Origin: a virus
Lineage: Duplodnaviria > Heunggongvirae > Uroviricota > Caudoviricetes
Virus record (IMG/VR): IMGVR_UViG_2879770953_000001
Strand: one strand, 5' to 3'
Length of the DNA: 15,296 bases
Each line of letters opens with the position of its first letter. The stretch's first letter is position 1. Positions 11,767-12,331 of the stretch are shown one piece after another. A program made the translations under genes and the position numbers. Under the pieces are notes generated by a model. It saw only the letters and a list, made by a program, of their open reading frames with translations, was not told the origin of the DNA and searched no databases.

Positions 11767-12331
11767 GTGGAAATTAAAAAAATCATTAATCCCCGTTATA
11801 CCGAAAGTGGCGCAGTAGACTGTGACGTTTTTTTTTGACGACAGGGACCAGGCAGTCCCCTACACAGCCACCGCTGATGATGTCGCACCGACGGGTCAGC
11901 GAATCTGGCAGGAACTGCAAAGTGGCAAATGGGGTGAGATAGCCCCATTCACTGTGACACCAGAAATGCTGGAAGCGGCCAGAGAGGCCAGACGTCAGGA
12001 AATTGAAGCATGGCGCGCAGAACAGGAGGCGAAGCCGTTCACGTTTGAATGGAACGGTCGTATCTGGAATGCTGGCCCCAACTCACTGGGCCGCCTGTCC
12101 CCGGTGGTCATGCTGGCAAAATCTGTCGCGGCACAAACAAATATGACGTGGAGTGATGCGGATAATCAGCAGGTGCAGCTGACGACGCAGGAACTTGAGG
12201 AACTGGCCACAGCGATGATACAGGCCATTGTTGAGCGCAACGATGAGATTTATCGCCGTCAGCGTGAAATGAAAGAGGAGCTGAGCGGTCTGGATGATTT
12301 GGCTTCAATTCGGGCGTTTGACGTTGAGTAA
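11767..12331 (+). pseudogene. Second tail fiber assembly/chaperone-like gene, frameshifted in a T9 homopolymer
   Basis: GTG at about 11767 is preceded by GAGGAA and encodes VEIKKIINPRYTESGAVDCDVFF, then hits TGA after the T-run at 11828-11836. The track ORF 11822..12331 (MTFFFDDRDQAVPY...) continues in the +1 frame. The call as an assembly protein rests on position after the tail fiber gene. Confidence 0.5.

Follow-up and report, generated by a model that had tools for sequence, protein, structure and literature searches.

The closest described relatives of the locus treated here are the so-called pseudo pseudogenes, in which a frameshift extends a non-slippery run of eight bases to a slippage-prone run of nine in some isolates only (Baranov, Hammer, Zhou, Gesteland & Atkins 2005, Genome Biol 6:R25; PMC1088944). 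A second point of reference is found in Shigella flexneri, where the T run of mxiE is used for functional transcriptional slippage (Penno et al. 2005, as cited in PMC1088944); this run lies at the junction of two overlapping frames, in a layout of two open reading frames (ORFs) that is functional, conserved and in need of an added nucleotide. The contingency loci of Neisseria, Haemophilus and Campylobacter are a third one, with a homopolymer in the 5' part of the ORF whose length varies between close isolates. The present work deals with a run of nine T's (T9) at positions 11828-11836 of a stretch of DNA of 15,296 nucleotides, the IMG/VR virus record IMGVR_UViG_2879770953_000001 (Caudoviricetes), which as a whole is called the window below. 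The run lies near the start of a DUF4376 gene (11767-12331) that follows a tail-fibre gene in a decayed prophage beside ipaH, a virulence gene of Shigella. We think that this gene was quite probably broken by a heritable insertion of one T, as a case of ordinary gene decay and not of a designed switch.

The window gene has in common with pseudo pseudogenes the same single-base insertion from eight to nine within a coding region, the existence of intact homologs and the polymorphism among isolates: on an identical allele, the T8 copies are intact single ORFs and the T9 copies are broken. Unlike them, it resides in a defunct prophage, so that any rescue of its product may be irrelevant; the 9A/9T lists that Baranov et al. 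give as a supplement do not contain the gene. The likeness to mxiE lies in the organism and in the position of the T run at the junction of two overlapping frames, whereas in the window the one-ORF T8 form is ancestral, T9 is polymorphic and rescue would need one nucleotide fewer. Compared with the contingency loci, the tract is unconserved, two lengths are seen and there is no surface or host-interaction phenotype. Among phages, phiP27 and Rac-SA53 have the same gene order as the window, i.e., wedge, fibre, Tfa, second fibre, DUF4376 and late-operon end, the DUF4376 gene of Rac-SA53 being tail4. In contrast to the window gene, the phage DUF4376 genes (phiP27, Rac-SA53 and P-Eib) are unbroken and lack a T run at the corresponding codons.

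The frame break at the nine-T run

A preliminary description of the window had reported a good ribosome-binding site and a GTG start for this gene, followed by a fall out of frame within the T run, and direct reading of the sequence confirms it. The run at 11828-11836 (plus strand) is exactly nine bases long. From the GTG at 11767, the frame continues for 23 codons (VEIKKIINPRYTESGAVDCDVFF) and then meets a premature TGA at 11836-11838, leaving a 5' fragment at 11767-11838 on the plus strand whose N-terminus is matched by PHROG 1141 and by homologs of 187-188 amino acids (aa). The remaining 164 codons and their stop (11837-12331, plus strand), with matches to PF14301 and PHROG 1141, sit one frame over. 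If one T is deleted, an uninterrupted frame of 187 codons is obtained that ends at 12331; the earlier proposal that eight T's would make the frame continuous is thus correct, and the product would be an intact DUF4376 protein of 187 aa. A mechanical ORF call at this place gives instead a frame of 169 aa at 11822-12331 on the plus strand.

The start at GTG 11767 is preceded, at a distance of seven bases, by the Shine-Dalgarno (SD) sequence GAGGA (11755-11759, plus strand), for which an anti-SD pairing energy of -6.2 kcal/mol was computed. There is also an ATG at 11707, in frame with this GTG, which is the start chosen by the annotation pipeline PGAP in orthologs and gives a coding sequence of 207 aa. 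The evidence favours the GTG, because of the span of the PHROG 1141 alignment and of the length of the homologs of the repaired protein, the majority of which have 187-192 aa (188 in phiP27 L57); the anti-SD pairing of this GTG, stronger than that of a second GTG at 11822, points the same way.

The presence of a T9 alone in 15 kb is not statistically unusual, as 0.24 such runs are expected per shuffle and 31 out of 200 shuffles have at least one. What makes it meaningful is its placement exactly at a frame break that the T8 orthologs do not have. Moreover, the extra T is the sole net insertion or deletion with respect to the orthologous locus L004 across 5.3 kb, and orthologous loci in general show no other one over 4-5 kb.

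A homopolymer sequencing error had been considered as one origin of the ninth T, the true genome then having T8. Homopolymers are a classic place of insertion and deletion errors in 454, nanopore and PacBio data, and the window has in addition a tract of 35 C's of doubtful exact length. Nevertheless, this explanation is not borne out by the comparison with other assemblies. The 169-aa product, which results from the frameshifted reading only, is present in 24 contigs or more that were produced by different projects and assemblers. They are taken from NCBI chromosomes (one assembly has it twice), from Logan assemblies that represent seven SRA runs and from other sources, and all those loci have T9. 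The same holds for a gut-metagenome contig from ENA and for all of the loci L006-L018. Over 10462-11900 (1439 bp), an independent draft contig (L046) shows 100% identity to the window, T9 and an amber codon in the neighbouring fibre gene included. Because L046 carries both T9 and this lineage-specific amber, an error private to the window can be regarded as excluded by the sequence match, and we consider an error of sequencing or assembly at the ninth T to be highly improbable.

Identity of the DUF4376 gene

The repaired protein matches Pfam PF14301 (DUF4376) over residues 70-175 with 63.8 bits, for a cut-off of 25, and PHROG 1141 with E 6.5e-87, its residues 2-187 aligning on profile positions 5-190 of 194. 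A fold search in BFVD with the same protein also led to DUF4376 proteins. Its nearest phage homologs are L57 of phiP27 and tail4 of Rac-SA53, with 70-71% protein identity over the full length, and remoter ones include ORF-191 of the P-Eib prophages. These phage homologs were obtained only by protein-level search, as comparison of the region with the phage collection by megablast gave no match; a sequence search of the PDB with the repaired protein gave no match at E <= 1. On these alignments, the window gene is a homolog of L57, which closes the late genes of phiP27 behind the second tail-fibre gene.

The gene had been presented as the second of two assembly-like genes, a label that stands as far as the position of the gene is concerned and does not fit the protein. 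An identity of the Caudo_TAP type (PF02413, as in lambda Tfa/gpK) was rejected, since the protein is DUF4376 and no similarity in sequence to the adjacent Tfa was detected. A role as fibre chaperone or accessory protein may be expected, because the gene directly follows the second tail-fibre gene. The annotations of the phage DUF4376 genes differ among 'tail fiber protein', 'tail fiber assembly protein' and 'hypothetical'.

In the predicted structure, two beta-strands of the N-terminal domain, modelled with confidence, are made up of residues 1-23, which also hold the invariant family positions I6, R10, E13, D18, C19 and F23. This is relevant for another explanation, namely that the GTG at 11822 independently expresses a functional protein of 169 aa, shortened at its N-terminus, and that T9 merely splits the gene. 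This GTG is in frame with the remainder of the gene, gene callers annotate the 169-aa product with a DUF4376 match, and its location 14 nt upstream of the TGA makes termination-reinitiation conceivable. On the other hand, its anti-SD pairing is weaker (-2.3 kcal/mol versus -6.2 kcal/mol for GTG 11767), the protein would lose the two modelled strands with their invariant positions, and no homolog family begins there. A working protein from independent initiation at GTG 11822 is unlikely, and we find it scarcely credible that the locus as a whole should be understood in this way. The preliminary description had held that orthologs sharing T9 together with a separate start at 11822 would speak against a broken gene. 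T9 copies do exist; however, they do not have that meaning, because they are close relatives of the same allele and the ribosome-binding site of GTG 11822 is weak.

Within the gene, a further observation concerns its C-terminal half, where about 25 substitutions with respect to the EIEC (enteroinvasive Escherichia coli) orthologs are concentrated in a dense patch at 12106-12235. The recurrence of this patch in other paralogs or alleles suggests recombination or gene conversion among the six to seven copies per genome. The differences between alleles are mosaic recombination patches that mirror phage history and not selection in Shigella.

Origin and fate of the T9 allele

The count of T's in orthologs gives a consistent picture of the two states. 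All EIEC-type E. coli orthologs examined (L001, L002, L004 and L005) have T8 and an intact frame. A pattern scan that admitted from T7 to T11 recovered 16 copies, and 15 of them have T8: the six copies of S. flexneri SFBU1023, the three on metagenome contigs, and six of the seven in 'E. coli' ECMA0423, the remaining one being T9. No run of T7, T10 or T11 was present among these 16 copies, and the T9 state is otherwise represented by the many contigs cited above. The homologs of phiP27, Rac-SA53 and E. coli PSJ-22 read GTG CTG/CTT TTT GAR at this place, the longest T run anywhere in the gene being of four to five bases; the functional phages have GTG CTG TTT GAG, with no run at all. By this comparison, T8 is the ancestral state in the lineage and T9 a derived insertion of one T (the ancestral codons being GTT TTT TTT). 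The T8 run itself is, by the same comparison, no conserved device, because neither the functional phages nor the distant E. coli copy have it; it is a recent accident of the Shigella/EIEC lineage, in which V-L-F turned into V-F-F (with GTT).

Both lengths occur on very similar backgrounds. The exact T8 version of the window allele is found in S. flexneri (P0150, in 15 contigs, and P0167), and in L056-L058 it lies at the same chromosomal locus as in the window, formed by IS66, the fibre gene split by IS2, Tfa, fibre, DUF4376, ipaH and murR-tadA-mltF. Over 1.8 kb, nothing but G at 11179 and T8 sets seven draft contigs (L059-L065) apart from the window, and one background of single-nucleotide polymorphisms is common to L057 (T8) and L006-L008 (T9). 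Further backgrounds with T9 are represented by L009-L015. When the run is masked, the T9 copies are distributed over at least three allele clades, and in two of these no more than two to four differences separate them from T8 copies. The simplest reading of these sequences is recurrent +1 slippage at a hotspot, possibly with some reversion or gene conversion.

Seven Logan contigs (L019-L025) end exactly after the eighth T, which corresponds to a branch of the assembly graph at the run. These ends do not demonstrate heterogeneity within a culture, given the six to seven paralogs per genome and the fact that ECMA0423 carries both states. Other short-read contigs (L042, L043 and L045) end exactly at 11178, beside the amber/TGG site of the fibre gene. 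Such graph breaks sit where paralogs differ; they are usable for the detection of mixed states and easily mistaken for truncated genes.

A phase-variable switch had also been proposed, in which T8 would be the ON state and T9 the OFF state of a contingency locus, reversible at a useful rate and with switching maintained by selection. The part of this proposal that stands is the hypermutable site: the tract length differs between close relatives, since the same S. flexneri locus and allele has T8 or T9 on identical haplotypes, and T9 appears in at least three clades. The contigs that stop after eight T's and the fact that the gene is intact in most Shigella copies, always beside ipaH, might be added in its favour. 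The switch itself fares worse. The tract is not kept across orthologs, as seen in the phage and PSJ-22 homologs, only T8 and T9 occur (T7 and T10-11 being never seen), and the coexistence of T8 and T9 paralogs in one genome accounts for the graph branches. Furthermore, with a dead partner fibre gene and a prophage reduced to a remnant, there is no obvious phenotype to switch. Mismatch-repair-proficient Escherichia and Shigella keep runs of eight to nine bases far more stable than classical contingency loci, and the host of the T8/T9 run is mismatch-repair-proficient, unlike the classical setting. For these reasons we regard a selected switch as very unlikely.

We think that slippage inactivation, which the preliminary description had listed together with the switch and the sequencing error, accounts for the locus much better. 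Replication slippage in the T8 run (GTT TTT TTT, coding for V-F-F) near the start of the 187-codon gene would have given T9; translation then ends at the TGA after 23 residues, and the DUF4376 domain stays untranslated in the standard reading. The loss of the gene would most likely be neutral decay, because it lies in a prophage remnant riddled with insertion sequences (IS), in which, by comparison with its closest relatives, inactivating point changes have also struck the partner fibre gene, the IS66 transposase and pin. The run is a mutational hotspot, as T8 and T9 alternate on otherwise identical haplotypes and in several clades.

The T9 allele is probably not fully null. Slippage of the RNA polymerase on the nine-T run would restore exactly the wild-type V-F-F-D-D, and so would a +1 ribosomal slip at UUU-UGA. 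In frame 0, the message reads GUU UUU UUU UGA C, and +1 re-pairing of tRNA-Phe at UUU leads to GAC GAC, i.e., the wild-type D-D; UUU UGA is among the +1 slippery sequences tabulated in PMC3500957. Either event may make the allele leaky. No SD-like stimulator of the prfB type was found in the upstream sequence GUAGACUGUGACG, and the local hairpin fold is not significant with respect to shuffles (z = -0.87). An intrinsic terminator inside the gene, flagged by the consensus scan at 11811-11824, was rejected on the same value.

It could be thought from this that T9 is a purposeful recoding site of the mxiE kind, functional as such, at which transcriptional slippage, or else a +1 ribosomal frameshift at UUU-UGA, would yield the full-length protein at a set level. 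A nine-T run at an ORF overlap is indeed a motif of S. flexneri mxiE and of many IS elements (PMC1088944), and the site has the slippery codon and in-frame stop, with re-pairing that restores the frame, as in prfB-type +1 frameshifting. What such a site should also have, an SD-like stimulator and conservation, is absent here, and the hairpin is not significant. Programmed transcriptional slippage would in turn require that the nine-base run and the two-ORF layout be conserved, whereas run length is unconserved and the single-ORF T8 form is both the majority and the ancestral one. According to Baranov et al. 2005, a run length that is polymorphic among homologs indicates replicational slippage and not programmed use (PMC1088944). 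A purposeful recoding site is therefore, in our opinion, a highly doubtful reading of the locus. We give equally little credit to the more elaborate proposal that T8/T9 constitutes an expression rheostat in S. flexneri, in which reversible DNA slippage and mxiE-like transcriptional slippage would tune a prefoldin-like DUF4376 protein kept beside ipaH after decay of the prophage. If it were true, the DUF4376 protein would have been co-opted for a non-phage role.

Some points weigh against a decay by recurrent slippage and should be taken into account. The T8 contigs L056 and L057 hold other single-base insertions or deletions and may be long-read assemblies, so that their T8 could be a homopolymer miscall; the recurrence rests mainly on the comparison of L059-L065, presumably short-read assemblies, with the window and L046, and on clades B and C. 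T9 could be spread among the six to seven paralogs of a genome by gene conversion, with no new mutation being needed. The clade of the window was sampled partly through a protein look-up that depends on T9, by which the share of T9 is inflated. Most Shigella copies are intact even where the remaining prophage has been lost, and this could hint at a retained function. Lastly, the slippage mechanism and the leakiness, as well as the neutrality and the chaperone role, are what we infer from the comparisons. With these points considered, the inactivation of the gene by insertion of one T belongs to a well-described class and reveals no new mechanism.

The prophage remnant and the value of the site

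Judged by its genes and order, the element in the window is an IS-riddled, phiP27-like prophage remnant adjoining ipaH in S. flexneri. Prophages and pseudogenes are typically found around ipaH paralogs (PMC9046306). The prophage is interrupted by IS600, IS1, IS66 and IS2. A change from TGG to TGA at 5404-5406 cuts the IS66-family transposase into two ORFs of 240 aa and 289 aa, intact forms of 548 aa and 533 aa being present in L056 and L057, respectively. The tail genes begin with remnants of the DUF2612 wedge and first-fibre genes at 6780-8181; IS2 occupies about 8094-9425 inside the first fibre gene, and a C-terminal piece of the latter follows at 9398-9916. The first tail-fibre assembly gene, Tfa (Caudo_TAP), is intact with 181 aa (9919-10464, plus strand; Pfam PF02413, E 8e-27; PHROG 136).

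The second tail-fibre gene, at 10488-11756 on the plus strand, has a prophage tail-fibre N-terminal domain (Pfam phage_tail_N, E 8.5e-71) and matches PHROG 2636 with both of its halves, which are separated by an amber codon when compared with the intact gene of L004. This TAG at 11178-11180 (plus strand) is TGG in 24 out of 24 other copies compared, and the same change from TGG to TAG is also found in the draft assemblies behind contigs L044, L046 and L047. The amber can serve as a lineage marker and travels with T9 in L046. A fibre accessory protein encoded by the DUF4376 gene would be without an evident job, because its partner fibre gene is dead. The fibre gene also has a 39-bp in-frame insertion or deletion in an alanine/glutamine-rich linker at 10849-10887, with the long form (422 aa) in the window and the EIEC loci and the short one (409 aa) in L006-L008, L056 and L057.

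Downstream of the DUF4376 gene, an ORF of 59 aa lies between its stop and that of ipaH (12331-12510); it is consistently called in related assemblies, with no Pfam match recorded there. The same interval has a GC-rich hairpin followed by a T tract at 12447-12468 (plus strand; nine pairs, eight of them GC), which is terminator-like by consensus scan only, between the DUF4376 gene and the convergent ipaH. The latter gene (12511-14337, minus strand) encodes an intact protein of 608 aa, an E3 ubiquitin ligase of the NEL type secreted by the type III secretion system, with Pfam matches to NEL (E 2.4e-75) and LRR_TTSS, and it is annotated as ipaHb at orthologous loci. A perfect 16-bp inverted repeat with a loop of 4 nt (AATGTACTGTTTTTTT / AAAAAAACAGTACATT) is placed at 14697-14732, between the region upstream of ipaH and a poly-C tract; flanked by T and A runs, it resembles a bidirectional terminator.

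The poly-C tract has 35 C's in the window (14782-14816) and lies about 40 nt upstream of the ATG (14856) of a truncated pin invertase gene at 14856-15296. Its flanks are identical at orthologous loci (CCCAATTCT-Cn-GACTTTTGACGCAGTG), where the lengths are C6, C7, C7, C7, C17, C18, C19, C20, C21 and C35. The short forms are those of the EIEC/E. coli loci and of one of the two copies of S. flexneri SFBU1023 (C7), the long ones those of the other S. flexneri loci. The tract is far more variable than the T run and could be a real hypermutable tract or, in part, a product of homopolymer miscalls. The invertase is stopped at 146 aa by a premature TAA at 15294-15296, and its EIEC ortholog is annotated with 'internal stop'. 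No inverted-repeat partner was found for the sequence beside pin, which would be the mark of an intact invertible segment.

The value of the site is, in our opinion, mainly one of annotation, as it is a true strain-level frameshift polymorphism and not an error. Therefore, where PGAP-style annotation calls a pseudogene at this locus, it is right for T9 strains, and assemblers break contigs at the run because one genome can hold T8 as well as T9 paralogs. Besides, the locus provides a clean natural homopolymer frameshift from eight to nine bases in a species that uses T-run transcriptional slippage functionally in mxiE, and the T9 site could act as a neutral control in the measurement of slippage and leakiness.
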